A stretch of 64,000 nucleotides of DNA from assembly GCA_002430725.1 (NCBI GenBank), contig DJCU01000001.1, positions 9,639-73,638 of the forward strand. The letters run 5' to 3'. The DNA comes from Candidatus Gottesmanbacteria bacterium UBA5942 (GTDB lineage Bacteria > Patescibacteriota > Microgenomatia > UBA10105 > UBA927). The position numbers were made by a program, and so were the translations under genes. The notes beneath the pieces were generated by a model, which searched no databases, was not told where the DNA came from, and was given only the letters and a program-made list of their open reading frames with translations. Position 1 is the first letter of the stretch, and each line of letters begins with the position of its first letter. Positions 8,361 to 53,064 of this stretch are shown in pieces.

Positions 8361-8999
8361 TTATGGCTGGTAACCTACCTCACGCACTTCTGTAGAAGTT
8401 TTACCAAACCGACTTGTCGCGCTTATCGTAATCTTATTAACTCCTGGCTCGACAGCTACTTGTTCATAAAATCTCCCATCATCACGAACTATGGTGGAAA
8501 TACCATTGATTGTTACCGTAGCATCAGCATCTGATTTTCCCTCAACTACCACCCTGCTACTCGTTACGATCTGCTGGTCAGTAGGACTTGTCACTGTCAG
8601 TGGTGGCGCTTTCCCAATACGGAAATACTGATTTCCGAGATAAAAGAGAAAAATAATCAACAAAATACTCACTAAAAATCCGACAAATCTTCCCGGAGTC
8701 AAATGTACAAACGGAGCATTAAGCGGATCAGATACTCCTTTTGGCAACAAACTCGCTTTAGAAACATCTGTCATCTGCCGCCGAAAAAATGCCATAATCG
8801 CATCTGTTGGTAACCCTAAATATTCTGCATAATTACGCACAAATCCCTTGGCATAAGAAGGTGAGGGAAGCCTGCCAAAATCATTTGCCTCAATGGCGAT
8901 AATATATTTTTCTCGTATTTTAATCGCCCTTTCGACATCGATGGGCGATAGTCCTTTGGCAATACGCGCTTCCTGGAGCATGCTTCCGACTGTCTTCAT
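8361..8999 (-). CDS. rodZ: RodZ-like cytoskeleton/cell-shape protein (HTH, TM, C-terminal domain).
   Basis: N-terminal XRE-type HTH (MLQEARIAKGLSPIDVERAIKIREKYIIAIE), a central TM and an extracytoplasmic C-terminus. Confidence 0.6.
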   Translation of the reverse strand: MKTVGSMLQEARIAKGLSPIDVERAIKIREKYIIAIEANDFGRLPSPSYAKGFVRNYAEYLGLPTDAIMAFFRRQMTDVSKASLLPKGVSDPLNAPFVHLTPGRFVGFLVSILLIIFLFYLGNQYFRIGKAPPLTVTSPTDQQIVTSSRVVVEGKSDADATVTINGISTIVRDDGRFYEQVAVEPGVNKITISATSRFGKTSTEVREVGYQP

Positions 9000-25530: not shown

Positions 25531-26574
25531 ATGAAACGAATTGTTATTATTGTAGTTTCCCTGATATTACTTTTAGCTATTCCCGCTTCGGTATTCCTTA
25601 CCATGCGAACACAGGAATTACGGAAAAAGGCTGCGCCCGCAACAACCCTTACTCTCACTCCAACAACTATTACCAAAGGAGTTGGTGAAGAATTCACCCT
25701 TGAAGCCCGCATGAACACTGGGGATAATCAAATCGTTGCGGTAGAACTTAATCTCACCTTTGACCCCACCAAGCTTCAGGCTGACTGGATTCACAATGGC
25801 ACAATGTTTCCAAATATTCTTTCTTCCGGCACCGTAGGGAACGGCACAGTATCCATCGCACTCGGAGCAACAAATACTACTACACCTATAACTGGTACGG
25901 GTACTGTCGCGACCATTAAATTCAAAACGCTAGCGCCAACGACAGCCCCAATCGCAGTTCGGTTTGCAGCGGACACTTTTGTCGGCGCGCTAAACGAAGG
26001 AAGTACCAACGCGCTTACAAGCTCAGTACCGGCAACAATTACGATTACCGGAGGCGGATCTACTGGCGTTACCCCGACAACAACTATCACAGCAGCGACT
26101 ACTCCAACGGTAACACTGACACCCACGCTCACCCCAACGTTGGGAGCATCAGACAGCGCAAGTCCATCAGCAGTAAGCATCGAAAGTCCATCACGGAATG
26201 AACGTGTTGAGACACTTCAACCAACAATCATCGGAAAAGCGCCACCCGGCTCAGTAGTCACCGTTACCGTTTATTCTGATCCCATCACCGTCACCGTTAC
26301 CGCAGACGCAAACGGTGATTGGTCGTATACCCTCACTGAACCGCTTGCGTCAGGGCCACACACGATCGTTGTCGCTGCACAAGATGCAGAAACAGGACAG
26401 TCCCACACTGCAACCCTCGCATTTGTTGTAGCAACTGATGGTGACAATGGTGCATCTGGAAGCGCTACCCCTGTTGCAGGCGCTGTAGAAAACACCATTG
26501 CACTTCTTGCATTAGGATTTATATTTATCGGTATGGGCGCTTTCATTCCTAAATTACGGAGGGTAGACCTATGA
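25531..26574 (+). CDS. Surface protein: signal/TM, cohesin-like domain, Ig-like domain, and a C-terminal TM anchor with a basic tail.
   Basis: GEEFTLEARMNTGDNQIVAVELNLTFDPTKLQ...GTVATIKFKTLAP resembles the cohesin fold. Thr-rich linker. C-terminus IALLALGFIFIGMGAFIPKLRRVDL. Confidence 0.5.
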   Translation: MKRIVIIVVSLILLLAIPASVFLTMRTQELRKKAAPATTLTLTPTTITKGVGEEFTLEARMNTGDNQIVAVELNLTFDPTKLQADWIHNGTMFPNILSSGTVGNGTVSIALGATNTTTPITGTGTVATIKFKTLAPTTAPIAVRFAADTFVGALNEGSTNALTSSVPATITITGGGSTGVTPTTTITAATTPTVTLTPTLTPTLGASDSASPSAVSIESPSRNERVETLQPTIIGKAPPGSVVTVTVYSDPITVTVTADANGDWSYTLTEPLASGPHTIVVAAQDAETGQSHTATLAFVVATDGDNGASGSATPVAGAVENTIALLALGFIFIGMGAFIPKLRRVDL

Positions 26575-27974
26575 GTCTCATCATGCGACAAGCCTCTGGT
26601 CGAACAACATCCATCATTTCATTTTTAGGTCTTATCGTATTCTTACCATTATTTATTATGGCAGTCGGCCAAACGATTACCCTGCTCTCGCGTGCATCGG
26701 GGAAACCAGCAGATATCACTGTCGACACGAAATCTCGTCTAGAGACCATAAACACAGACTTCTATCACGCGTTTGCGCAAGGGGGTGAAGAATCGAATGA
26801 CATGATCGCCTCGATTACTGCAGATACCCGAGCGCTCAAGCCAAAGCTTATACGACTCGACCATCTCTATGATCATTATGATGTCGTAGGGAGAGATGGA
26901 AGTGGACTCACATTTAACTGGTCGAAACTCGATGAAGTAGTAAACACAGTAATCGCAACGGGTGCCCGACCGGTATTAGCACTTTCTTATATGCCGGGTG
27001 TTATCGCACAAGACGGCAATATCATTAACCCCCCAAACGACTGGAATGAATGGGCGCTCGTCGTACAGCGCACTATCGAGCATTATAGTGGTAAAAGTGG
27101 ACGCAACTTAAATGGTGTGTATTACGAGGTATGGAATGAGCCTGATCTGGCACAATTCGGTTCATGGAAAATGGGCGGAGAAAAAAGCTATCTCACACTT
27201 TATCGATATGCAGCAATTGGCGCAAATAACGCTCAAAATGTAAACACATTTTATCTTGGTGGCCCATCAACAACAGGTCTTTACAAAAACTGGATCATAG
27301 GACTTGTTGAGTCAGGAAATAGAGTAAATTTCTTATCATGGCACACGTATCTTTCCGACCCTGAACGATTTGCAACCGATCAACGCAACATTATCCAATG
27401 GCTACTTCCCTATCCCAATTACACACTGCTCCCTAAACTTATCACCGAGTTCGGGTTTACAGGAAGCAAGAGTATTGGGTATGGCGGCAACTACGGCGCC
27501 GCTCATACAGCTGCGGTTATCCGACAGCTTATATCCGGCGGGCCTACCTATATTTTTAGTTTCCAGCTCAAAGACGGGCCAGGTCAGACAGATGGATCTG
27601 GCTGGGGACTTATTACCCACGATGATAATGGACTCAAGAAAAAACCACGATATTACGTCTATAATTTTCTCGATACCATGGCAGGTACTCGATTACTGCT
27701 TACTGGAGAAGGCTCATGGGTTACCGGGTTTGCTACTGTCAGGGATGATGTTATTCGGGTGATGCTCGTGAATTTTGATGCAAACGGAAGTCATAGTGAA
27801 CAAACGCCCGTAAAGTTTACCAACCTCGAAGTTGGTTCGTACACGCTTCGCACTCGGTTTATGCTTGGACGCGATACCAGCACAACGTTCGAAGCACAAG
27901 ACAGCACAATCGCTACAGATATCTTTATGCCAGCCCAGAGCATCGCGATACTGGAGCTTACGAAACAACCATAA
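26571..27974 (+). CDS. Clan GH-A glycoside hydrolase (GH39/GH5-like) with an N-terminal membrane anchor.
   Basis: YYEVWNEPD (acid/base Glu) and ITEFGFTG (nucleophile Glu) are spaced as in GH-A (beta/alpha)8 enzymes. Start overlaps the upstream stop as ATGA. Confidence 0.6.
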   Translation: MSLIMRQASGRTTSIISFLGLIVFLPLFIMAVGQTITLLSRASGKPADITVDTKSRLETINTDFYHAFAQGGEESNDMIASITADTRALKPKLIRLDHLYDHYDVVGRDGSGLTFNWSKLDEVVNTVIATGARPVLALSYMPGVIAQDGNIINPPNDWNEWALVVQRTIEHYSGKSGRNLNGVYYEVWNEPDLAQFGSWKMGGEKSYLTLYRYAAIGANNAQNVNTFYLGGPSTTGLYKNWIIGLVESGNRVNFLSWHTYLSDPERFATDQRNIIQWLLPYPNYTLLPKLITEFGFTGSKSIGYGGNYGAAHTAAVIRQLISGGPTYIFSFQLKDGPGQTDGSGWGLITHDDNGLKKKPRYYVYNFLDTMAGTRLLLTGEGSWVTGFATVRDDVIRVMLVNFDANGSHSEQTPVKFTNLEVGSYTLRTRFMLGRDTSTTFEAQDSTIATDIFMPAQSIAILELTKQP

Positions 27975-28008: not shown

Positions 28009-29661
28009 TTAGGTTAGTTTGTCCGACACCCCACCATTTACTACTTCCTGTGCCGGCTCTAAGAAAAAGCCTCGGAAGGCTTGAATTTTTCGTGTCGCCT
28101 TAATCACAGAATATACTTGAGTTACTCCCAACACCCACGAAAGGAAAAAGTACGTCATAATCCCTAAGCCCGCGCTCACTCCGGTTAAAAACAACAGTCC
28201 GAACGTGCGGGTAGTATCAAATACGAGCTGATCGAGTAACTTAAGCGGCACATAGAGTGCGGCACCGGTCACCACCGCGGCAACTCCCATTTTGATAGCC
28301 GGTATTATAAGTACTGGTGATATAACCCCGTTCATTTTCTTGTTAAGAAAATAAAGTAACGCCCCTGCATTTATAATGCTTGCAATAGATGTTGATAATC
28401 CCAACGACCACACCGGCAAATGAAATACTAAGATAAATAACGTGCTTAATACTGAATTGAGAATAACCGTCACTACCCCCACACTCACGGGTGTTTTACT
28501 GTCATATAACGCATAAAATCCTCGCGCAAGGATATGAATAAGTGCTTGCGCAAATAACGATACGCTAAACGCGGAAAGTGTCATACCGGTATCTACGGTA
28601 GCTGCCCAATCAAAACGGGAAGCGCCAAAAACCAAACGAACGACAGGAATACGAAGCACCATAAACAACACCGATGCGGGCAATACCCAAAACAATATTT
28701 GATGAATAGCTGCGTGAATTGTGGCAATAAATTCTTCTTTTTTATCTTTCGCGGCAAATTGCGAAAGTGATGGGAGAGCGGCTTGTGCGATAGTCGTACC
28801 AAAAAGACCGACCGGTAATTGTTGTAAGTGCTGCGCAAAATTAAAGATTGTGACCATCCGAGCTCCCAATAAACTAGCGAGCATAAGGTCTACGGTAATA
28901 TCAATTTGTGCGACCGCCAGCCCCAGTGTTCTTGGCCCCATGAGCCTCCCCACTTCTTTCACCCCCGGCAACTTAGGATCTATATCCAAGGTATGTCGAT
29001 ACCCAAGTCGGATAACTAATGGAATTTGAATGAGAGCAAATAGCAGCGCACCGATAGCTACTCCCACTATTGGCCCCCATAATCCCCAGAGAGAAGAAAG
29101 CGCGACCGTCCCTATAATAATGCCGACATTGTAAAACACCGGTGCCGCAGCGGGAACCAAAAAGAGGCTGTGCGACTGGAGTATGCCAGTTAACACATTC
29201 CCGATTAGTAACGGACCAACCTGGAAAAGTAATATAAATCGAGTGTATGCGCTCATTTGCGCAATCTGCGCTTCATCAAATCCAGGTGCAAGCAGACGTG
29301 AAATTGCGGGCGCTGCAATAAATAATGGTATAGCCACGATCGCCAATATAATAACGCTCAAATTGATAAGCACAGTCGCGAGACGCTCGGCATCTCGTTC
29401 ACGATTGTCTGCCAAATACTTCGTATAGACAGGAATAAACGCTGCGGTGAGCGCGCCCATAACCAACAACTCGAAAATAACATTCGGGATACGAAATGCG
29501 GCAAAATACACACCCAATTCTTCGGGCGCAAAATATGAAGAAAGCAAGCGATCACGAACAAGCCCCAACACTCGAGAAACGAGAACCATGAGTGCTAATA
29601 CACCTGCGGCTGAGCCAATTGTCGTTTGTTTTTTACTCGCCAACGCCCAAAATCGCTTCAT
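28009..29661 (-). CDS. murJ: Lipid II flippase MurJ (MviN).
   Basis: VLGLVRDRLLSSYFAPEELGVYFAAFRIPN MurJ N-terminal signature and 14 TM helices. Confidence 0.9.
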   Translation of the reverse strand: MKRFWALASKKQTTIGSAAGVLALMVLVSRVLGLVRDRLLSSYFAPEELGVYFAAFRIPNVIFELLVMGALTAAFIPVYTKYLADNRERDAERLATVLINLSVIILAIVAIPLFIAAPAISRLLAPGFDEAQIAQMSAYTRFILLFQVGPLLIGNVLTGILQSHSLFLVPAAAPVFYNVGIIIGTVALSSLWGLWGPIVGVAIGALLFALIQIPLVIRLGYRHTLDIDPKLPGVKEVGRLMGPRTLGLAVAQIDITVDLMLASLLGARMVTIFNFAQHLQQLPVGLFGTTIAQAALPSLSQFAAKDKKEEFIATIHAAIHQILFWVLPASVLFMVLRIPVVRLVFGASRFDWAATVDTGMTLSAFSVSLFAQALIHILARGFYALYDSKTPVSVGVVTVILNSVLSTLFILVFHLPVWSLGLSTSIASIINAGALLYFLNKKMNGVISPVLIIPAIKMGVAAVVTGAALYVPLKLLDQLVFDTTRTFGLLFLTGVSAGLGIMTYFFLSWVLGVTQVYSVIKATRKIQAFRGFFLEPAQEVVNGGVSDKLT

Positions 29662-29689
29662 AACTTCCCTATTATAGATCAGAGGTATC

Positions 29690-29719
29690 TTGACCCACCA
29701 GCACCAAGTGCGTTATACT
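29690..29719 (+). promoter_or_regulatory. Sigma70-like promoter of rpsT (TTGACC - 18 nt - TATACT), 7 nt before the ATG. The -35 box overlaps the divergent murJ promoter.
   Basis: TTGACC at 29690-29695, TATACT at 29714-29719, ATG at 29727. On the minus strand, TATAAT lies 9 nt before the murJ ATG. Confidence 0.5.
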
Positions 29720-29726
29720 TCCACCC

Positions 29727-29963
29727 ATGCCAATCATAAAACGAGCTATTAAAAAGTTGCGCCATGACCGTGCGCGCACCTTACAGAACGAAAAATCAAG
29801 AAACACCCTGAAAATGGTGGTTAAAAAAGCACGAAAAGTGCCAACAATTAAATCTATCTCAGAAGCAGCAAGTGCGCTTGATAAGGCCGTCAAAAAACAT
29901 CTTATCCATAAAAACGCAGCAGCCCGCACCAAATCAAGGCTGTCAAAACTTCTCAAAAAATAA
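29727..29963 (+). CDS. rpsT: Ribosomal protein S20.
   Basis: MPIIKRAIKKLRHDRARTLQNEKSRNTLK is canonical S20. Confidence 0.9.
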   Translation: MPIIKRAIKKLRHDRARTLQNEKSRNTLKMVVKKARKVPTIKSISEAASALDKAVKKHLIHKNAAARTKSRLSKLLKK

Positions 29964-30025
29964 TACGTTTTTTAGAGGCATCCCCCGTTTCATTTAGTGA
30001 TTTCCCTTGCTATACTTGAAGATGT

Positions 30026-30577
30026 ATGCCTGCCAATCAAATACGCATTAATCTTTTGGGGACTCAAGATTTGGGTCACACACCATGGGGACGCCTCGTC
30101 TCGTGGGCAACCACATACGGAAGATACATCATGATCACCACTGAAATTGTGGTGCTTTTGGCATTTATATCCCGCTTCAGCCTCGATCGCAAAAATACCG
30201 ACCTAACTGAAGAGCTTGGTCAAAAACAGGCAATTATCGAAGCAAACCTTGAATTCGAACGGGAAATAAAATCATTACAGGCAAATCTTACGACCGCAAA
30301 AAAGCTTCTCACTGATCAAACAAAACCGGTAGAGCTTCTCAATCTTATAGAATCAACGCTCCCTGCCGATGTTTTTCTTTCATCACTCGATATTTCGCAA
30401 ACCAAACTGACACTCACCGCTTCGGCAGGCACGACACAAGGATTTGCACAATTTCTATCAAATATCCAATCGGTTCGCCAACTCCAAAATGTATTATTGG
30501 GAGACATACGGCGCGAACCCACGACAGGTATCGAATTTCAACTCACTGCTGATGTCGCAGGTGCACCAAAAAAATAA
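30026..30577 (+). CDS. pilN: Type IV pilus assembly protein PilN.
   Basis: N-terminal IRINLL motif (the PilM-binding INLLP signature), a single TM, a coiled coil and a C-terminal domain. Confidence 0.7.
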   Translation: MPANQIRINLLGTQDLGHTPWGRLVSWATTYGRYIMITTEIVVLLAFISRFSLDRKNTDLTEELGQKQAIIEANLEFEREIKSLQANLTTAKKLLTDQTKPVELLNLIESTLPADVFLSSLDISQTKLTLTASAGTTQGFAQFLSNIQSVRQLQNVLLGDIRREPTTGIEFQLTADVAGAPKK

Positions 30578-30580
30578 CGT

Positions 30581-31237
30581 ATGGCAAACACACCACTTAA
30601 TCAATCAAGTCTCGATACTCAATTCCACCGATATTACCAACGACTTACCCCTATCATGAAAAAACCAAAAATGCGGGCGTCTACGACCGCGGTTTTTTCG
30701 TTTTTAGCAATCTCGCTATTTACATGGTATGCCATACGACCTACCGCTCAAACGATTATTTTCCTACGCCGCGAAATTTCCGACAAAACAGCGCTCAATG
30801 AACAAATGGAAAATAAAATCACCGCACTCATAGAATCACAAGATACCTATGAAAAGATCAAAGAACGACTTCCGATAGTCCAACAAGCGCTCCCCCCAAA
30901 TCCAGATGGGGTTATACTGGCACGACAATTACGAAATCTCGCTGTTATCTCGGGTGCGTCCATTTCCGCCATACAAGTACCCAGTCTTCCTATCTTAGGA
31001 AAAGAGGCAACGCCAGGAGCAAAACTCGCGCCGCCCAAACCGCTCGAAGAATTTCCTGTGAACGTGGTGCTCACCGGCCCTTATGCATCACTAAAAACAT
31101 TTATTGATGGATTACTGACGCTTCGGCGCATTACATCTATCGACACCATTAATATACGACCAGCCCTTCGACAAGGGCTTTCTCTCGATTCATTACAACT
31201 ATCTATTAAGATACAATCGTATTACTCAACACAATAA
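30581..31237 (+). CDS. pilO: Type IV pilus assembly protein PilO-like.
   Basis: Short cytoplasmic N-terminus, a TM, a coiled coil and a C-terminal domain. Immediately downstream of pilN, in PilO position. Confidence 0.5.
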   Translation: MANTPLNQSSLDTQFHRYYQRLTPIMKKPKMRASTTAVFSFLAISLFTWYAIRPTAQTIIFLRREISDKTALNEQMENKITALIESQDTYEKIKERLPIVQQALPPNPDGVILARQLRNLAVISGASISAIQVPSLPILGKEATPGAKLAPPKPLEEFPVNVVLTGPYASLKTFIDGLLTLRRITSIDTINIRPALRQGLSLDSLQLSIKIQSYYSTQ

Positions 31238-31241
31238 CACT

Positions 31242-31439
31242 ATGGACGAAGAACGGGATTTATTACTTGTTGCAGTATTTACGACACTCACGATATTTTT
31301 GTGGGTATTTTTCGAATTGGTAAAAACATCCAAAACATCGTCAATTGCCACCCCACTTCAGCAAGTCGTGAGTCCACTCACCAGCAAAATTGAAGTAGAG
31401 GTAATTGATGAACTTGAAAAAAGAAGCACATTAGATTAA
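31242..31439 (+). CDS. Small single-TM hypothetical protein in the pil cluster.
   Basis: 65 aa, LLLVAVFTTLTIFLWVFFELV hydrophobic segment, tightly packed between pilO and the next gene. Confidence 0.35.
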   Translation: MDEERDLLLVAVFTTLTIFLWVFFELVKTSKTSSIATPLQQVVSPLTSKIEVEVIDELEKRSTLD

Positions 31440-31443
31440 TGAT

Positions 31444-32733
31444 ATGCAGGAGCGAAAAATTCCAACACTCATCGGATTATTATTAGTAGCCATCGCAGTC
31501 ATGGTATTCCGATTTGCGTTCGATCGTATCAGCCCATATATGTCGCGGGCATCAGCAATACAGTCGCCCCAAAACGTAACCATCAGCAATATTACTGACA
31601 CAGCATTTACTGTGTCATGGCTTACACAAGAACAGACAACGGGGGCAATTGTTGTTGAAGGCATCACGTCTCCTTTTTATGACGATCGTCAACTAACACC
31701 GTCCTCCTCGTCAACGAAACGAGAAGAGTTATTTTTTACTCATAGTGTTTCTATAAGAAATAGTAATCCAGACACCACATATAAATTCCGGATATTGTCC
31801 GGAGGTAAAATCTATACAGATAATGGCAACGCGTACGAAGTGCGCACAGCTCCGCTACTCAATGGCACTGGAACAAATTTAGAACCAGCGTATGGTCAAG
31901 TAACAACGCCTACAGATTTACCAGCCGAAGGCTCACTCGTCTACTTAACCATGACAAACGGGCAAACACTTTCTACCCTTGTTAACACGTCTGGTTCGTG
32001 GGTCATCCCGCTTAACCTTGTCCGCACACAAGACTTAACGAGGTTTATCGAACCTGCCGAACGCATCGATGAATCTATTGTCATCCGTTCACCAGAGGGT
32101 GAAGCCTCTGCGCTCACCGATAGCCTCAATGATAATCCCGTACCTGCGATGACTATCGGTAAAACATACGATTTTAGAAAAATTCAGGCTAACAATCTCA
32201 ATGAAAACAAGAAACTTGCCGAAGCCCCCCCTGCGGTTCTCGGTACGCAAACAAGTCAGGCTGCGCAAACCATCGCAATCACAAAACCAGCGCAAGGGGC
32301 GGCAATACCTTCAAATTTACCGCTCATTCAGGGTACTGGACTACCAGGTAAAAACGTTTTGGTAGTGGTAGGGATACAAAATCCGCTCAGCGCTTCCGTT
32401 ACTGTGGGGGCAGATGGTATTTGGCGATACACCCCCGAACGCCCACTACATGAAGGGAAACAAAGCGTCACTATCACCACTCAAAACGCCCAAAATCAAA
32501 CAAAGGCTATTACACATACCTTTGAAATCCTTAAAAGTGGAACACAGGTGTTGGGCGATGCTACCCCATCAGCAACCATAGAACCTACCCCAACACTCGA
32601 TGAAACACCTTCACCTACTGCAACACTCACCGGAGAAGAAATGCCTACAAGCGGCAATGAGCTGCCGCTCATCATCATGCTTATACTCGGTGCTACATTA
32701 TTATTAGGCGGAGGCAGCTTACTGTTTCTCTAG
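31444..32733 (+). CDS. Membrane-anchored surface protein with FN3-like and Ig-like domains and a C-terminal TM. The N-terminus resembles a degenerate type IV prepilin leader.
   Basis: NVTISNITDTAFTVSWLTQEQTTGAIVV is FN3-like. C-terminus PLIIMLILGATLLLGGGSLLFL. N-terminal RKIPTLIGLLLVAIAV aligns with the KGFTLIELLVV pilin consensus but lacks the Gly and Glu. Confidence 0.5.
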   Translation: MQERKIPTLIGLLLVAIAVMVFRFAFDRISPYMSRASAIQSPQNVTISNITDTAFTVSWLTQEQTTGAIVVEGITSPFYDDRQLTPSSSSTKREELFFTHSVSIRNSNPDTTYKFRILSGGKIYTDNGNAYEVRTAPLLNGTGTNLEPAYGQVTTPTDLPAEGSLVYLTMTNGQTLSTLVNTSGSWVIPLNLVRTQDLTRFIEPAERIDESIVIRSPEGEASALTDSLNDNPVPAMTIGKTYDFRKIQANNLNENKKLAEAPPAVLGTQTSQAAQTIAITKPAQGAAIPSNLPLIQGTGLPGKNVLVVVGIQNPLSASVTVGADGIWRYTPERPLHEGKQSVTITTQNAQNQTKAITHTFEILKSGTQVLGDATPSATIEPTPTLDETPSPTATLTGEEMPTSGNELPLIIMLILGATLLLGGGSLLFL

Positions 32734-32740
32734 CAAAATC

Positions 32741-32760
32741 ACGCATGCATTGCGTTTTTG
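32741..32760 (+). terminator. Intrinsic terminator after the FN3 surface-protein gene.
   Basis: ACGCA-TGCAT-TGCGT hairpin followed by TTTTT. Confidence 0.55.
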
Positions 32761-32887
32761 GTATATCCCAATAACAAGCACTTGACGAAACGAGTAAAAA
32801 CCCGTTAGTCTGATAATAGGTGTACACTTTGTATTCGTAGGCTTACGCGACATATCCTAAGCCGAGAGTACGCATTTAACTAATCTT

Positions 32888-33955
32888 GTGCCAGACGATA
32901 TTTTAGACGCAGCTCAAAAAGCAATAAATGACGCAGCAAAAAACGCCGATGCAGGCGCAGTTCCTGCTGCTCCTCTAAACGAAACACCTGCACCACAAAG
33001 CGCACCGCTACCGCCTGAACCAGTCGAACCAGTAACACCCCCACCTGCAGAAATGCCGCAGTCATCACCGGTAACACCCGAAACACCAGCGTCAACAGAT
33101 GCTCCTACAACACCCACGCAGGCATCCACCGATATGACAAAAGAAGAAATGATGAATGAACTCCTTGGGTCAACGTCAGTCGCTGCCCCAGCGTCAGTGG
33201 TCGTTCCTCCTCCAGAAAAAAGTGGAAAACCGCACAGCGGAAGCTTGCCGCCCAAAAAAACTTCTAAGGTAGGTATTATCGCTGTTATCGCAGCGTTACT
33301 TCTGACGCTCCCAGTTGCGGTTTATTTCATATCACAACAAAACAGTCAGATCGCAGATATTAGAAATCGCGCTGCCTGGGATACGGTATACCAAGGCTGT
33401 ACCGTCAGTCCTGATAGTTGTAAATCACTCGGACCAGGCTGGTCGTGCCATTGTCAAAATGGAACAGCGTGCACCCACACCGAATGCGAATACGATATTG
33501 AACGGAACTGTAGAGACCAAGGGAGACAATACTGCTTGAATGTCTTTAACGGAAATGCCATGACATGTTGCGTTGAAGGCTATGTCTGTGGACCAAGCGG
33601 CGGCTGTGTCCCTGGTGGAGGTGGTGGCGATGATGATAGCGGTGATGATGACGATACGGAGCCAACTCCCACGCCCACCACAGGAATTACGCCAGTCTGC
33701 CAAAATATAAAACTCTACAAAAATGGCACACAGGTTACTGACCTTAACACCCTTCGCGCTGGTGACGAAGTAGTACTCGCTGTCAAAGGCAACCTTTCAC
33801 CAACGAAGGCACACTTTAGAGTTAACGGGTCTGGCTGGACAGAAACCACAACTAAAAATGCAAGCGATGAGTTTACATGGAGTTACACCATACCTGAAGG
33901 TGTACCTGACTTTGTTATAGAAGGCGAAGTGTTTACGAACGGAGCATGGAGATAA
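32888..33955 (+). CDS. Bitopic membrane protein: cytoplasmic Pro-rich N-terminus, one TM, an extracellular Cys-rich module, an acidic linker and a C-terminal beta domain. GTG start.
   Basis: TM VGIIAVIAALLLTLPVAVYFI. At least 14 Cys in CTVSPDSCKSLGPGWSCHCQNGTACTHTECEYDIERNCRDQGRQYCLNVFNGNAMTCCVEGYVCGPSGGCVPGGGGG. Acidic linker DDDSGDDDD. Confidence 0.5.
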   Translation: MPDDILDAAQKAINDAAKNADAGAVPAAPLNETPAPQSAPLPPEPVEPVTPPPAEMPQSSPVTPETPASTDAPTTPTQASTDMTKEEMMNELLGSTSVAAPASVVVPPPEKSGKPHSGSLPPKKTSKVGIIAVIAALLLTLPVAVYFISQQNSQIADIRNRAAWDTVYQGCTVSPDSCKSLGPGWSCHCQNGTACTHTECEYDIERNCRDQGRQYCLNVFNGNAMTCCVEGYVCGPSGGCVPGGGGGDDDSGDDDDTEPTPTPTTGITPVCQNIKLYKNGTQVTDLNTLRAGDEVVLAVKGNLSPTKAHFRVNGSGWTETTTKNASDEFTWSYTIPEGVPDFVIEGEVFTNGAWR

Positions 33956-33956
33956 T

Positions 33957-34685
33957 ATGGGATTTTTGAAAAAATATTGGTATCTACTGCTTGTCACCAT
34001 TATCACTGCTGGCATTGGCGTGGTAGCCTACATTACAAGCACTAAGCTGGAACAACGAGCACCTGTTGCTCCCACTGTGCCGCAAGTCACACCAAAAGCG
34101 ACTGATGTAAACTGCAAACTTGTCTTTAGCATCGAGGCTGAACCAACACCAACACCGACTGACGGTCCGACTCCGACTCCGACACCAACGCCGACACCTG
34201 GACCAACAGCTACGCCTACACCGGAACCAACCGCCACTCCAACGCCTGTCGCTAACAATGAAAATCCGGTCTGCGTAGATCTCACTGTCGAACCTGCAAC
34301 GGGCACTGTCCCCTATACCGTCACCTTGACCTGTATTGGACGGGATGAAGACGGTGATATTACCGCTGCAGAATTTACCATGCCCGATGGATCTACCAAG
34401 CTTGTTGAACAAAATGTTGGCAGCCCAGGGTCACTTACCACCACCTATACAGTTACGACAAGTGGCGCATACAGCTTCTCCTGTCAGGTACGAGACAACA
34501 ACAGCGTTTGGGTATCGTCCGAAAACTGCCGCGTCTCAACAGGGCCAACGCCGCCACCAGGAACTACTGCAACGCCGACTCCTATCCCAACACCGAAAAT
34601 ACCGGTCGCTGGAGTACCATCAGTCCTTGGAGCATCAGCGGTTGCTGGAGGACTACTCTTACTGCTCATCGGGTTAATATTCTAA
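33957..34685 (+). CDS. PKD-like domain surface protein with Pro/Thr linkers and a C-terminal hydrophobic anchor. Paralog of the CDS at 1493.
   Basis: DITAAEFTMPDGS...TTYTVTTSGAYSFSCQVRDNNSV parallels the CDS at 1493-2266. PTPTPT linkers. C-terminus GGLLLLLIGLIF. Confidence 0.55.
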   Translation: MGFLKKYWYLLLVTIITAGIGVVAYITSTKLEQRAPVAPTVPQVTPKATDVNCKLVFSIEAEPTPTPTDGPTPTPTPTPTPGPTATPTPEPTATPTPVANNENPVCVDLTVEPATGTVPYTVTLTCIGRDEDGDITAAEFTMPDGSTKLVEQNVGSPGSLTTTYTVTTSGAYSFSCQVRDNNSVWVSSENCRVSTGPTPPPGTTATPTPIPTPKIPVAGVPSVLGASAVAGGLLLLLIGLIF

Positions 34686-34862
34686 GCCCCACGTACGACC
34701 GAGCTTTTGAGGGGCATCTCTCTTTACTCGTGTATTACTCGTATAACTTCAAAAGCGCGGCTTCTCCACATAAATAGGAGCAAGGGAAACAAAATGATGT
34801 TCTACCCTTTAAAGCAACATATACGCATAGAAAAAAAAGGGGGGGAAGATATAAAGGTGAAG

Positions 34863-35891
34863 CTATTGAAGCTTACTTTTTACGAATGTGTGTACTGCCT
34901 CAAAGCTTTCTTTTGGAAGAAGTACATAGCGCCCATACCACGAACTGGGGGGCGTATACAGCTGATCTTCTATCGATATCCGTTGCGTATTTTCCTTGGG
35001 TATCTGCAAAAACATCTTGCCTATTGTTAGTAGTTCTCCGATATTCAAATCGGTGTCTGTCGCTTCATCAAACGCGCCATATAATTTTTCTACCTCTCCG
35101 GGGTGAAGATAAATATCCTGAGATAATAGCTTTGATTTAAGCGCGAGCAACACTTCCTGTTGACGTCTCCCTCGTGCAAAATCACTTCCTTCGTCCCCTT
35201 CCGCATGCCTACTCCGCACATATTTAAGTGCCAACGCCCCATCCATCGTTTGCAAACCAGCATCAAAATGAAGTGGCTCATACCGGCAACCAAACTCAGG
35301 GTCTCCGCCACATTCATCATTCTCACGACCCGGAATAGGGAACTCTGTATCAGTAAAACTTTTTGGCACATCTATTTCAACCCCGCCCACAAGGTCTATA
35401 ACTTTCCGAAATCCTGAAAAATCCAACACTAATGCATATTGGATAGGAAGCCCTATCATGTCCGATACGATTGCTTTCGCAAGTATTAATCCGCCGCCTT
35501 TTTTCTTTAATTCTCCATAGTGATACGCGCTGTTTACCTTATCTTTGAGCGTATCGCTCCAAATATCACGAGGGACGGAAATCATCGCGAGTGTATGATT
35601 TTTTTCATGGAAAGATAACACAAGGATAGTATCAGTTAAATCAGTACCATCATGATCACCACCAGGAATACCCAAAAGCAAGATGTTTACTCGACCATCT
35701 ATTGGTTTTAAATCTGCGCCCGCATCAAACACCAACTTAAATAGTGTCGTGGGAGTGATACCTGTGGTTGACATAAAATTCTGGGAGATCGCTATGCCTC
35801 GAAGCAACGCATACCCCACCAGCAATATGCTGAGAGCAAGCACGACCCACGCTATTTTTGGCACATGAATACGGCGGATACGCGGTTCCAT
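34863..35891 (-). CDS. LytR-CpsA-Psr (LCP) family cell-envelope polymer transferase.
   Basis: N-terminal TM, LLGIPGGDHDGTDLTDTILVLS...ISVPRD LCP motifs. Confidence 0.8.
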   Translation of the reverse strand: MEPRIRRIHVPKIAWVVLALSILLVGYALLRGIAISQNFMSTTGITPTTLFKLVFDAGADLKPIDGRVNILLLGIPGGDHDGTDLTDTILVLSFHEKNHTLAMISVPRDIWSDTLKDKVNSAYHYGELKKKGGGLILAKAIVSDMIGLPIQYALVLDFSGFRKVIDLVGGVEIDVPKSFTDTEFPIPGRENDECGGDPEFGCRYEPLHFDAGLQTMDGALALKYVRSRHAEGDEGSDFARGRRQQEVLLALKSKLLSQDIYLHPGEVEKLYGAFDEATDTDLNIGELLTIGKMFLQIPKENTQRISIEDQLYTPPSSWYGRYVLLPKESFEAVHTFVKSKLQ

Positions 35892-35905
35892 ATAGATATG
35901 AATAC

Positions 35906-36586
35906 TTACGACAACACAGCGCGAATAAGCGACACAAATTTGTCCGGATCCAGACTTGCCCCGCCGACCCCAACCCCGGAAAGATATGGCTGGTCAGTAA
36001 ACCCTTTGACATTCTCATGTGTTACGCTTCCCCCATATAAAATTGGCACAGTCGGAAAAATCTGCTGTATTTCCATTGCTGCCGCATTTGCGTTTTCTGG
36101 TGAGTCCGATGTACCTGAGCCAATAGCAAACAACGGTTCATAGAGCAATAATCCACTTTTGGCAAACTCCGGTGCAAGCATATTAAGCTGCTTTATTTGC
36201 TCTGTATTTGATACGCAAACAACAGGCTTAATACCCACCTCGATTACGCGCTTTACTTTTTCTGCCACAATCTCATCGGTTTCTCCAAAGTGTTTTCGCC
36301 TCTCAGAGTGGCCAATCATCGCGTGAGTTACATCATCTTTTACCATCGAGGCGGCTACCTCACCTGTATAGGCACCCATATCAAATGGAGAAATATTCTG
36401 TACTCCTGTCGCATAGGTATTACTTTTATGAGCAAACAATGACACGTGATGATATGCAGGGCATAAAATTATAGTGACGTTATCGAGTATGGGAGGTACA
36501 TTTTTAACAAATGACTGTTGCCAAAGCACTGCTTCTGCTGTTGTTTTGTTCGACTTCCAGTTCCCTAAAATGAAAAGGTTTTTCAT
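35906..36586 (-). CDS. tpiA: Triosephosphate isomerase.
   Basis: ILGNWKSN, IGHSERR, YEPLFAIGSG TIM signatures. Confidence 0.9.
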   Translation of the reverse strand: MKNLFILGNWKSNKTTAEAVLWQQSFVKNVPPILDNVTIILCPAYHHVSLFAHKSNTYATGVQNISPFDMGAYTGEVAASMVKDDVTHAMIGHSERRKHFGETDEIVAEKVKRVIEVGIKPVVCVSNTEQIKQLNMLAPEFAKSGLLLYEPLFAIGSGTSDSPENANAAAMEIQQIFPTVPILYGGSVTHENVKGFTDQPYLSGVGVGGASLDPDKFVSLIRAVLS

Positions 36587-50709: not shown

Positions 50710-51095
50710 AATTCACCCTTCCCGTTTCTCCTCCACAAGAATTACTCCAAGGGATTGGCTCGACAAAAATGACATGGGAGTATCGATGGGCAACAAATGC
50801 AGTTATTACTCAACTCATCGTGGGAAGCGGAGTCCTTGCATGGTTTTGGAGATTTTTACCTCCCGAGATACCCCTTTGGTATAGTCGACCATGGGGACAG
50901 GAACGATTAGCCTCTCCATGGTTTCTTTTGTTGCCGATGGCGACTGCCATAGTGGTTTACCTTATTAACCTTTTGCTTATCGCCAAATTTGCATCACAAC
51001 ACCCCATGTTTACTCGCGTACTCCTCCTTACTTCACTCCTTGTATCGTGCTTAAGTGGCGCTATGGTTATACGCATTATTACACTTATAAGTTAA
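50706..51095 (+). CDS. Small three-TM membrane protein, translationally coupled to the GT-C gene (ATGA overlap).
   Basis: 129 aa, hydrophobic helices, start overlaps the upstream stop. Confidence 0.45.
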   Translation: MKFTLPVSPPQELLQGIGSTKMTWEYRWATNAVITQLIVGSGVLAWFWRFLPPEIPLWYSRPWGQERLASPWFLLLPMATAIVVYLINLLLIAKFASQHPMFTRVLLLTSLLVSCLSGAMVIRIITLIS

Positions 51096-51097
51096 TG

Positions 51098-52180
51098 ATC
51101 GAATTCCTTCCATCACTACTTGCTGCCGCGCTCATTACCTTCGGCTTAACACCGCTCGTTATCAGATTTGCCCGCCAGCATGGTCTCGTCGATGACCCAA
51201 AGCATCGATACCACCCTGCGCATACGCATAAAGGTGTTATTCCTCGGGCAGGAGGGTTAGCGCTATTTTTGGGCATTGCCACCATGATGCTTATAGCACT
51301 CCCTATGAACCCTCAAATCATGGGAATTATTGTCGGAAGCGTTATTCTCATGATTGTCGGGCTATTTGATGACAAACGGGACGTAAACCCATATATACGA
51401 CTCGGAACAAATATTTTGGTTGCGATAATAGTCGTTGCCACTGGGAGCAGTATCCCATTTATCACAAACCCGCTTACCGGTGGTGTACTACCACTCTCAA
51501 TATGGAGCTTTGCCATAGAGCTAGGTGGCAACAGTGTCGTTATCGGTCTTCCCCACTTTTTGGCAATTATCTGGATAGTGTGGACTATGAACATTATTGG
51601 GTGGTCTGCCGGAGTTGACGGACAAATGCCTGGATATGTCGCAATCTCTGCTTTTATATTAGGGCTTTTATCTCTTCGGTATAGTTTGCTTGATGCCAAC
51701 CAAATTTGGGTAACGATACTCGCATTTATTGTCGCTGGAGCGTATGTAGGATTTCTTCCTTGGAATTTTTATCCCCAGAAAATTATGCCCGGGTACGGTG
51801 GCAAAACGCTGGCAGGATTTTTTCTCGCCCTCTTGGGTATTTTGTCTTTCGCAAAATTAGGGACTGCCCTGCTCGTTCTTGGTATCCCTATGTTAGACGC
51901 GGTGGCGACTCTTATAAGACGCATAGGGTTGAGAAAGTCGCCCGTACTTGCTGATCGGGGACATCTTCACCACCGACTATTGGACTTAGGGTGGAGCAAG
52001 CCAAAAATCGCCTTGTTTTACTGGGGAGTCTCGGCTATACTTGGGCTGGTATCGCTTACAGTCACAAGCACACTAAAAGTATTCACTTTTGTTGCTGTAG
52101 CTGTAGCGCTATCCATGTTTCTCGTATGGGTCAGCTTCTTTACGCAATTCTCAAAGCAGCAAGACCACGACAGTGGCTAA
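51098..52180 (+). CDS. Polyprenyl-phosphate N-acetylhexosamine-1-phosphate transferase (GT4, MraY/WecA family).
   Basis: GLFDDKRD (DDxxD) and HLHHRL motifs. About 10 TM helices. Confidence 0.75.
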   Translation: MEFLPSLLAAALITFGLTPLVIRFARQHGLVDDPKHRYHPAHTHKGVIPRAGGLALFLGIATMMLIALPMNPQIMGIIVGSVILMIVGLFDDKRDVNPYIRLGTNILVAIIVVATGSSIPFITNPLTGGVLPLSIWSFAIELGGNSVVIGLPHFLAIIWIVWTMNIIGWSAGVDGQMPGYVAISAFILGLLSLRYSLLDANQIWVTILAFIVAGAYVGFLPWNFYPQKIMPGYGGKTLAGFFLALLGILSFAKLGTALLVLGIPMLDAVATLIRRIGLRKSPVLADRGHLHHRLLDLGWSKPKIALFYWGVSAILGLVSLTVTSTLKVFTFVAVAVALSMFLVWVSFFTQFSKQQDHDSG

Positions 52181-53064
52181 AAAACTTAGCGCTGTTCACT
52201 ACGATATTCTTTACAGGACACTTATTTAATACCTCTCTTCTTAGTGATTCTCTCCTCGGATTTGTCGCGTTCTGTTTTCTTTCCTCATCAAATTACATAT
52301 TAAATGACGTACTCGATGCCCCCGCTGACAGACGTCACCCGTTTAAAAAATTTCGCCCTGTCGCGAGTGGCAAACTACCGGTAAAAACAGCGTTACTTGT
52401 ATCTTTACTCCTCCTCGTTTCTGGATTAGGAATAGCGCAGATAATCGGTCAAACATTTTTTCTCTTTTCCCTGGTCTTTATCCTGCTGCAGTACTCGTAT
52501 TCGATTATCTTGAAGCACATATCTGTCATTGATATTGTCGCAATTACTGCAGGGTACGTACTTCGCGTCTACGCGGGAGAAGCGGCAAGTGGATATCATA
52601 TTTCTATCTGGCTTGCGCTTGCAGCATTATCGCTCGCACTATTTCTTGCTATCGGCAAACGGAGAGCAGAACTCACCCTAATCCAAGGCTCTGGAGACGC
52701 ATCACCCAAAGATACGAGGGCAGCATTATCGCACTATTCTGAAAAACTTTTGGATGCGTATACGTCTATGTTCGCCACCAGTACGTTTATCTCATACACG
52801 TATTTTACATTCCTTGAGCGCCCGATCACCCAGGGGCTTATATTTAAAAACTACAGTGACTTCGTTATCGGTATACCAGATCGCAAATGGATGATGATGA
52901 CCATACCATTTGTCCTATATGGCATTATGCGATACATGCAGCTTATTTATCATGGAAAAGGTGAGTCACCTGAGCAAGTGTTAACGACAGACTTACCACT
53001 CCTTAGCACTGTTATCCTTTGGACAGGGGCTGCATTTTTTGTCATCTATGGTATCGGGGGCTGA
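52126..53064 (+). CDS. UbiA-family prenyl(phosphate) transferase, possibly decaprenyl-phosphate phosphoribosyltransferase-like.
   Basis: NDVLDAPADRRHP (NDxxDxxxD) and ARPRQWLKNL N-terminus. About 8 TM helices. The start is inferred and overlaps the upstream gene by about 55 nt. Confidence 0.6.
   Translation: MGQLLYAILKAARPRQWLKNLALFTTIFFTGHLFNTSLLSDSLLGFVAFCFLSSSNYILNDVLDAPADRRHPFKKFRPVASGKLPVKTALLVSLLLLVSGLGIAQIIGQTFFLFSLVFILLQYSYSIILKHISVIDIVAITAGYVLRVYAGEAASGYHISIWLALAALSLALFLAIGKRRAELTLIQGSGDASPKDTRAALSHYSEKLLDAYTSMFATSTFISYTYFTFLERPITQGLIFKNYSDFVIGIPDRKWMMMTIPFVLYGIMRYMQLIYHGKGESPEQVLTTDLPLLSTVILWTGAAFFVIYGIGG

Follow-up and report, generated by a model that had tools for sequence, protein, structure and literature searches.

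Candidate phyla radiation (CPR) bacteria, or Patescibacteria, are thought to live attached to other cells and, apart from type IV pili, we know of almost nothing that sets their partner specificity. Variable surface proteins occur in other organisms. The variant-specific surface proteins (VSPs) of the eukaryote Giardia are metal-binding type I proteins in which CXXC motifs predominate, drawn from a gene family and switched through control of its expression, and Neisseria PilE has a disulfide-bounded hypervariable region served by silent pilS cassettes. Amongst the CPR, the Peregrinibacteria encode large Cys-rich, strain-variable extracellular proteins with a proposed role in attachment (Anantharaman et al. 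2016, PMC4736985), the nearest published description to the protein considered here. This protein is the product of gene A, located in a 64,000-nucleotide (nt) stretch (the window) of the assembly of Candidatus Gottesmanbacteria bacterium UBA5942 (GCA_002430725.1, contig DJCU01000001.1), and it carries a 12-Cys module between a transmembrane segment and a conserved C-terminal domain. The best explanation overall, offered tentatively and with confidence falling a little short of even, is that A is a conserved envelope scaffold with an exchangeable disulfide-rich cassette, coupled to the product of the adjacent gene B. The component statements on the fold, the disulfides and the cassette are held with higher confidence than this overall explanation. 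New here are the bounded behaviour of the cassette, the conserved scaffold around the module and the lone-Cys pattern in A and B.

Gene A and its cysteine-rich module

The features of gene A, with positions in the window and in amino acids (aa) of the protein, are as follows.

32888..33955, + strand: gene A, 355 aa, GTG start; type II bitopic membrane protein (from the list of open reading frames, ORFs)
32888..32941, + strand: N-terminal helix motif MPDDILDAAQKAINDAAK, aa 1–18, cytoplasmic, conserved
32942..33256, + strand: Pro/Ala/Thr-rich linker, aa 19–123, presumably disordered, cytoplasmic; length and sequence differ among homologues
33134-33172, + strand: second motif TKEEMMNELLG, aa 83–95, semi-conserved, within the Pro-rich linker
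33269..33373, + strand: transmembrane segment (aa 128–150) and juxtamembrane motif ISQQNSQIADIRNRA (aa 149–162), from the alignment
33398..33607, + strand: 12-Cys module, aa 171–240 (70 aa), folded, cassette-like and hypervariable, from Cys parity, predicted local distance difference test (pLDDT) values and identity breaks
33608..33691, + strand: flexible linker, Gly/Asp-rich then Pro/Thr-rich, aa 241–268; pLDDT <50 (AlphaFold2)
33692..33952, + strand: Ig/FN3-like beta-sandwich, aa 269–355 (87 aa), conserved; six strands, pLDDT 89–97
33698-33700, + strand: invariant lone Cys271, first residue of strand 1

A word-index search with A yielded 84 homologues, while an exhaustive profile search yielded 1165 cluster representatives at E ≤ 1e-3 and 167 at E ≤ 1e-30. 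Column occupancy and identity were counted on an alignment of 46–47 homologues and Cys parity on 175 relatives possessing both the transmembrane segment and the C-terminal domain; related loci were retrieved with the C-terminal-domain alignment and 38 were fetched (numbered with the prefix L). The family is sizeable, with at least ~200 clusters carrying the C-terminal domain. Its members are labelled only ‘hypothetical’ or ‘uncharacterized’ in every source, scans of A against Pfam, NCBIfam, PHROGs and PADLOC gave 0 matches (Pfam none at E ≤ 1), literature searches found no description of it, and the family appears undescribed. The word-index homologues originated from Candidatus Gottesmanbacteria, Woesebacteria and Patescibacteria metagenome-assembled genomes, and a protein identical to A is present on contigs of up to 1.17 Mb. 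All the homologues found belong to CPR/Patescibacteria, and among these to the Gottesmanbacteria/Microgenomates type, in keeping with the restriction to episymbiont lineages that an earlier note on this DNA had proposed as a check. A is a real, unannotated, lineage-specific cell-envelope protein of the Gottesmanbacteria/Microgenomates (CPR), with five conserved or semi-conserved pieces: the N-terminal helix, the KEEMMNELLG motif, the transmembrane segment with its juxtamembrane motif, the Cys region and the C-terminal domain.

The Cys region has a mean identity of 41% in the alignment and a Cys density of 17% over 70 aa; the other proteins of the window have 0–8 Cys, and most of the exported ones have 0. 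Each of the 12 Cys columns is filled in 37–46 of the 47 homologues. The number of Cys between the transmembrane segment and the C-terminal domain is even in 47/47 aligned homologues, and the variable region has an even count in 169 of the 175 relatives, across a range of 0–52 Cys over 11–527 aa (binomial p = 1.6e-42, a nominal value that ignores the kinship of the sequences). Losses of Cys from the 12-Cys core tend to be paired (C189 with C195 once, C216 with C234 twice). Near-invariant residues of the module other than Cys include a G, QGR, an N, a T before the CC, and GY. In AlphaFold2 models of the A ectodomain the module had pLDDT values of 78–92, and modelled alone it was compact and beta-rich (pLDDT 83; predicted template modelling score, pTM, 0.69). 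An even number of extracytoplasmic Cys together with a Cys-free cytoplasmic part characterises disulfide-bonded exported proteins, and the A family shows both. An MdbA-like thiol-disulfide oxidoreductase with VKOR encoded next to it is over-represented in CPR genomes (bioRxiv 10.1101/335083).

Alignment and models together point firmly to a genuine folded domain with paired Cys, which is probably disulfide-bonded, with six bonds. The earlier note had described a disulfide-stabilised, folded extracellular module, and even parity, paired loss, conserved Cys positions and confident prediction all bear this out; neither a low-confidence structure nor unconserved Cys columns, which it had named as counting against the idea, were found. 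Its suggestion of metal binding fared worse. The Cys density is high enough for an extracellular thiolate cluster to be considered, and metals are bound by the Giardia VSPs, another set of variable Cys-rich surface proteins, yet even parity, a position outside the cytoplasm and the absence of CxxC pairs favour disulfides over metal. The paired loss of Cys, the absence of any conserved His besides a single CHC, a lineage equipped with MdbA/VKOR and a model that is confident without metal run the same way, making a metal-binding cluster scarcely credible.

A Foldseek search of the Protein Data Bank (PDB) with the module model gave no fold match (best E 3.1, TM-score ≤0.30), a BFVD search added nothing, and a PDB sequence-profile search of A returned nothing significant, with the EGF domain of Factor X at E 0.64–10. 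The likeness to EGF, TNFR or anaphylatoxin folds raised in the earlier note thus found no backing in Pfam, profile or structure searches. The best match of the profile search, S. aureus MGT (E 0.065), was rejected as a spurious match to the transmembrane segment. A resemblance by eye of the CC-x5-C-G pattern to hevein/CBM18 was likewise set aside, there being no Pfam match and no WGA or hevein structure in the Foldseek output. A word-index search with the Cys-module alignment alone had 0 matches, probably a limit of the word index. In this module, A offers an unannotated disulfide-rich domain without a detectable structural relative.

The placement of the module outside the cell follows from the topology of A. 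The only hydrophobic segment lies at ~aa 128–150, with lysines just on its N-terminal side (PPKKTSK), and the first 127 aa (26 P, 22 A, 12 T, 12 S) contain 0 Cys; the cytoplasmic part is without Cys in 172 of the 175 relatives. The single segment, the N-side lysines and the lack of N-side Cys mark A, at the level of sequence, as a protein with one internal signal-anchor that leaves the tail in the cytoplasm and places the Cys on the outer side (N-in/C-out, type II), in keeping with the Pro-rich N-terminus, single transmembrane segment and type II-like topology reported previously. The Asp-rich DDDSGDDDD linker (aa 247–255) and beta-rich C-terminal domain of that description were also recovered, the latter with six strands in the AlphaFold2 model. 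Its count of at least 14 Cys was too high, with 12 in aa 171–240 and C271 giving 13, though the spacings it listed are present (CxC at 187/189, CC at 227/228 and CxxxxC at 195/200).

Homologues of A start with the same MPDDILDAAQKAINDA as the window protein, indicating that the GTG is the true start and that the long N-terminal region is translated. The N-terminal helix carries MPDDILDAAQKAINDAA and has a mean identity of 77% across 46 homologues, compared to 27% for the neighbouring linker; it is 95–100% identical in L036, L037 and L006, the three relatives in which the segment aligns. The GTG start is without an obvious Shine-Dalgarno sequence. Over the first 20 codons (32888-32947), synonymous divergence (pS) was 0.08–0.23 compared to ~0.55–0.65 in the rest of the locus, in three pairwise comparisons with small numbers, which hints at nucleotide-level constraint, such as translation initiation or RNA structure.

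Beyond the transmembrane segment the family has a juxtamembrane consensus, YFISQQNQQIADxRSRA, in which R159 and A162 are invariant among the aligned homologues, the sole invariant residues of A outside the C-terminal domain. This raises the alternative that A is secreted, with the transmembrane segment and R-x-x-A motif forming an extended signal peptide cleaved after A162 and the N-terminal 160 aa acting as a targeting or regulatory pro-region; the released ectodomain might then be held on the cell by a disulfide to B, an arrangement compatible with an exchangeable cassette coupled to B. The consensus RSRA places small residues at −3 and −1, and similar motifs follow the N-terminal signal-anchors of other exported proteins of the window (SRA in the GH39 and FN3 proteins, RKKA in the cohesin protein and ADLRSLA in the PKD protein). 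The site, however, lies 12–14 residues past the hydrophobic core, further than in usual c-regions, the window protein itself has Asn at −3, and a cytoplasmic extension of 125 aa carrying two conserved motifs does not resemble known signal peptides. This secreted-protein reading is considered very unlikely. A cluster representative (P0001) that is 99% identical to A differs at A162S, C171F and T172S, leaving 11 module Cys; with the first module Cys gone, this is a natural variant in which one Cys lacks a partner, or else a sequencing error.

Exchange of the module between related genomes

The module sits between two conserved parts, the transmembrane segment with its juxtamembrane motif and the linker with the C-terminal domain. 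Across the whole family it is the least conserved part of A, while the N-terminal helix, the transmembrane/juxtamembrane segment and the lone-Cys C-terminal domain are kept. Comparison of the window with L006 (Gottesmanbacteria UBA6580) gave 88–94% aa identity for PilN, PilO, the 65-aa protein and the FN3 protein encoded upstream of A, as opposed to 40% for the variable region. The contrast was sharper between L036 and L006 (~93–95% identical in DNA), where identity was mostly 88–100% throughout the locus (60-nt windows) and fell to 38–67% over ~300 nt at the module, a stretch that starts right after the juxtamembrane motif and stops at the acidic/Pro-Thr linker (aa identity 0.97 for the flanks, 0.41 for the variable region). 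L038 displayed the reverse discordance relative to the window, with module identity of 90–93% between flanks at 0.74.

Modules of different type in close genomes had nonsynonymous divergence (dN) of 0.37–0.79, compared to 0.02–0.07 for the flanking genes, while modules of the same type had a dN of only 0.03–0.06 with saturated synonymous sites (90–95% protein identity). The discordant identities of flank and module, together with the low same-type dN, point to discrete types that are exchanged, or retained, apart from the genome background. Judged from these comparisons, the module has been replaced as a unit between close genomes, independently of genome background, and each module type appears to be under strong purifying selection. 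In the wider family, the variable region may be absent, may run to several hundred residues of a different Cys-rich sequence and, in one case, may contain a Hint domain. A Pfam scan of the 82 longest family members identified no recurrent inserted domain and that one Hint domain only; it occurs in a 648-aa member (P0088; Hint_2, Hint/intein-like, E 1.3e-7) between Cys-rich segments of the variable region.

The variable length of the region (11–527 aa, 0–52 Cys, absent in some members), its membrane-proximal position below a distal conserved domain and the lack of a recurrent Pfam domain in the 82 longest members could also be accounted for by a passive, disulfide-stiffened spacer between the membrane and the C-terminal domain, varying through neutral drift and indels. 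Purifying selection on modules of the same type is contrary to drift, the non-Cys residues QGR, N and GY are conserved, divergence is sharply bounded at the module edges and discordant with the flanks, and stand-alone paralogues with the transmembrane segment and module exist in L001 and L002. A passive spacer is thus regarded as unlikely, and the hypervariability of an exchangeable cassette is compatible with a recognition role of the module, which may include the host contact put forward in the earlier note.

The paralogues in question are short extra genes (128–162 aa) between B and LCP at L001 11712-12098 and 12073-12519 and at L002 12064-12552. They encode a short N-tail, the same transmembrane segment, an ISQQN..R.KA motif and the 12-Cys module, with no Pro-rich tail and no C-terminal domain, and could be stand-alone module proteins or a cassette reservoir. 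The window has no extra copy of the transmembrane segment and module. Variation by a diversity-generating retroelement was rejected for A: no second copy or template repeat was found within the 64-kb window (blastn), and allele differences consist of indels and all base types.

Gene B, the A-B pair and the surrounding locus

The conserved C-terminal domain of A begins PVCQNIK, has a mean identity of 74% and contains exactly one Cys in 172 of the 175 relatives. Foldseek matches in the PDB were led by BhCBM56 (E 0.042), with KIR, LAIR1, GNBP3 and FN3 structures also present (TM-scores, TMt, of 0.43–0.55; none at E ≤ 1e-3), and BFVD gave similar FN3-like matches at E ≥ 0.015. An Ig/FN3/CBM56-type fold is plausible on the strength of the model, and no specific family emerges. 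The C-terminus of A (FTNGAWR) has no LPXTG-like sorting motif and no transmembrane segment. Gene B follows directly.

33957..34685, + strand: gene B, 242 aa, putative partner; 1-nt gap after A
34068-34100, + strand: motif APTVPQVTPKA in B
34113-34133, + strand: lone-Cys strand CKLVFSI in B
34599-34682, + strand: IPVAG and hydrophobic C-terminal sorting signal in B, LPXTG-like

B consists, in order, of an N-terminal transmembrane segment or signal, the APTVPQVTPKA motif, the lone-Cys strand, a Pro/Thr linker, a 4-Cys PKD-like domain (Pfam E 2e-4, below the Pfam cut-off), a second Pro/Thr linker and the sorting signal; its homologues end in [IV]PV[AST]G and a hydrophobic C-terminus. In the loci for which gene coordinates were read, B always follows A, with a gap of 1–10 nt or a 4-nt overlap (the overlap in L005). 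The pair is kept together in the rearranged L034, although its orientation there is reversed with respect to the FN3 gene, and has been tandemly duplicated as a unit in L017, with differing A cassettes and near-identical B copies. The Cys count of B is odd in 120/120 homologues (1, 3, 5, 7, 9 or 17), and mini-B forms, reduced to signal, lone-Cys strand, linker and sorting signal, keep just the lone Cys. Other exported proteins of the lineage have a zero or even Cys count. Two adjacent proteins, each with one conserved extra Cys, suggest an intermolecular disulfide, and a bond between Cys271 of A and the lone Cys of B (C53) is possible, if doubtful, from these patterns.

A, mostly together with B, is present in two or three tandem copies at L017 3899-7611, at L021 2330-7850 and at L015 5782-7917 with L011. 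Cassettes differ between the copies (e.g., 20 vs 16 module Cys) while the B copies are near identical, and several of the L021 copies look frameshifted. Within the window, a PKD protein (1451-2266, +) is a paralogue of B with the same 4-Cys PKD-like domain and Pro/Thr linkers, without the lone-Cys strand and ending in a transmembrane segment and basic tail instead of IPVAG. After its signal it has a TLP..QQ..ADLRS.A-type motif (TLP..QQADLRSLA) resembling the juxtamembrane motif of A.

Upstream of A, the same strand encodes the following.

30026-30577, + strand: PilN (Pfam)
30581-31237, + strand: PilO (Pfam)
31242-31439, + strand: 65-aa transmembrane protein
31444-32733, + strand: FN3/Big_13 protein, 429 aa, with an MPTSG LPXTG-like sorting signal (Pfam)
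32741..32755, + strand: hairpin and T-run, weak, terminator-like, directly after the FN3/Big_13 gene; 5-bp stem with 3 GC pairs, a consensus match only
32782..32811, + strand: promoter-like TTGACG-18 nt-TAGTCT for the A-B pair, ~75 nt 5' of the GTG

A TTGACG followed by TAnnnT 17–18 nt further on recurs 5' of A in most related loci; the element in the window was missed by a consensus promoter scan owing to its weak −10 hexamer. As far as contigs reach, the locus order MurJ(−), S20, PilN, PilO, 65-aa protein, FN3/Big_13, A, B, LCP(−), TIM(−) is held in 37 of the 38 loci, with L034 the only exception, and the distance between A and the FN3 gene varies from 45 to 154 nt. The pilN and pilO genes lie directly after rpsT (S20; 29727-31237, +), with Pfam matches at E 6e-9 for PilN, including the INLL PilM-binding motif, and E 3e-8 for PilO. 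No PilM, PilB, PilC, PilD or pilin is encoded in the 64-kb window, and since PilN keeps its INLL motif PilM must be encoded elsewhere. There is also no sortase gene in the window, an Rfam scan of 29000-36000 gave nothing relevant, and the FN3 protein matched the TIGR01167 sorting-signal model at E 0.21 only. A was rejected as a type IV pilin, as a regular-expression scan of all window ORFs found no class III signal peptide and A starts MPDDILDAAQ.

This neighbourhood invites a reading of A, with the 65-aa protein, the FN3 protein and B, as a type IV pilus alignment accessory that, in a monoderm lacking a secretin, extends the PilN/PilO platform across the cell wall in place of PilP/PilQ, the N-terminal helix of A docking a cytoplasmic pilus component. 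A is four genes downstream of PilN and PilO on the same strand, in an order that hardly varies, and PilP-like proteins likewise join a small beta-sandwich at the C-terminus to a long disordered linker. A is nevertheless preceded by a conserved promoter-like element of its own and by a gap that follows a terminator-like hairpin, and the inversion of the A-B pair in L034 separates its orientation from that of the FN3 gene. DnaK, MurJ, TIM and UvrD are also syntenic in the clade, so adjacency says little, and PilM, PilB, PilC and a pilin are absent from the window. No Pfam or NCBIfam match of A to PilP/GspC was found, neither was among the top 50 Foldseek PDB matches, and a hypervariable cassette would be unexpected in a machinery subunit. 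A pilus-machinery role of A is possible though weakly supported, and the alignment-accessory reading is distinctly unlikely.

Other proteins of the window share some traits with this locus. An R/K-x-A motif (RKKA, SRA, SRA and QRA, respectively) occurs ~9–14 residues past the N-terminal hydrophobic segment of those encoded at 25531-26574, 26571-27974, 31444-32733 and 33957-34685, and may be a lineage-typical processing site. Three of these four end in [MIT]P[TV][SA]G and a hydrophobic tail, two of the three without the usual basic tail. The gene at 8361-8999 (−) encodes 212 aa with an N-terminal HTH_25 (RodZ-type) domain, one transmembrane segment and a C-terminal Glucodextran_B Ig-like domain, a RodZ-like protein with an unusual outer domain. 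Further downstream, the listed ORFs for a Glycos_transf_4 protein (51047-52180, +) and a UbiA-family prenyltransferase (51991-53064, +) overlap by ~190 nt; the true start of the latter is probably downstream of its first listed GTG.

A possible envelope device and its likeness to known systems

Under the explanation of a conserved scaffold with an exchangeable cassette, A would be inserted N-in/C-out and its module oxidatively folded to six disulfides by an MdbA/VKOR-type system of the kind common in CPR. The distal Ig-like domain would be coupled through C271 to the sortase-anchored, wall-sorted B, while the N-terminal helix, tethered in the cytoplasm by the long Pro-rich stretch, would dock a cytoplasmic partner. 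The cassette would be the specificity part of this complex, recognising a variable ligand, e.g., a host surface, phage or bacteriocin, and would be diversified by homologous recombination across the conserved flanks. In its fullest form, A and B would make up an undescribed Microgenomates two-protein envelope device, held by a single disulfide between C271 and the B Cys and equipped with a new-fold specificity cassette for host, phage or toxin; possibly, the A sandwich is also augmented by the N-terminal strand of B, and the docking helix serves to relay or position the complex. This fuller version is speculative, and we regard it as quite improbable as a whole.

Several points weigh against the scaffold-and-cassette explanation. 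The parity statistics disregard sequence relatedness, and strain chimeras might produce sharp identity breaks in the metagenome assemblies from which the sequences derive. In three of the 175 relatives the variable region is devoid of Cys (e.g., P0169 and P0172, 206–240 aa), so that the module is not essential to the core function of the family. The module begins ~20 aa past the transmembrane segment, with the conserved domain distal to it, which is the reverse of a recognition module located at the tip, and it may be buried in a walled cell. As for the coupling, B does not co-vary with the cassette (B is 97% identical where the cassette is 63%), the lone Cys of A or B could instead homodimerise, stay reduced or carry a modification, and gene neighbourhood is weak evidence when unrelated housekeeping genes are equally syntenic in one clade.

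A bounded allelic-replacement hot spot in otherwise near-identical genomes marks A as a target of diversifying or frequency-dependent selection, and the cassette is a strain-typing marker for Gottesmanbacteria populations. The A-B link makes a simple testable prediction, one intermolecular disulfide joining a membrane protein to a wall-sorted partner. If the cassette is a recognition determinant, the host or phage specificity of an uncultivated lineage would become directly testable with recombinant modules.

Known systems resemble parts of A rather than the whole. The module is small, beta-rich and disulfide-dominated like EGF, TNFR and insulin-receptor repeats, but the corresponding Foldseek matches were poor (7kd6, insulin receptor Cys-rich region, E 3.1; 2hev, OX40, E 7.2; TM-scores ≤0.30). 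With the MdbA-folded sortase substrates of Actinobacteria, B and the FN3 protein share an [IVM]P[VT][AS]G ending with a hydrophobic tail, and exported proteins use disulfides in both; A, however, lacks a sorting signal, in B and the FN3 protein the signal is not followed by the customary basic tail, and no sortase is encoded in the window. FtsN and RodZ have the same general layout as A, with a short N-terminal element, one transmembrane segment, a juxtamembrane segment, a flexible linker and a small outer C-terminal domain. Nothing links A to division or elongation, though, the window encodes the separate RodZ-like protein at 8361-8999, and no SPOR, HTH_25 or DUF4115 domain, nor the zf-HC2/RskA domains of anti-sigma factors, was found in A with Pfam or NCBIfam.

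For the behaviour of the cassette, Neisseria PilE is a closer parallel, with a conserved scaffold and a disulfide-containing hypervariable segment exchanged by recombination across conserved flanks, and the truncated copies of transmembrane segment and module beside the locus in L001 and L002 recall the pilS cassettes. Unlike PilE, A has no class III signal and shows no sign of switching within a genome; the additional copies in L001 and L002 have start codons and a transmembrane segment. Giardia VSPs share with A a membrane anchor and a variable Cys-rich outer region on a conserved anchor and cytoplasmic segment. A, by contrast, is a type II protein with hardly any CXXC spacing, encoded by a single-copy gene whose cassette is replaced allelically from genome to genome. 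If the A-B device is real, it would be a bacterial counterpart of such parasite variant surface protein systems. The Peregrinibacteria proteins are, like A, extracellular or membrane-associated, very Cys-rich and from the CPR, with attachment as their proposed role; likened to A by description only, they are ~1,655 aa long, possess signal peptides and are encoded in a 14-gene cluster (PMC4736985). A differs from them in being a 355-aa type II protein with a long cytoplasmic tail, a single bounded cassette of 70 aa and a lone-Cys C-terminal domain.

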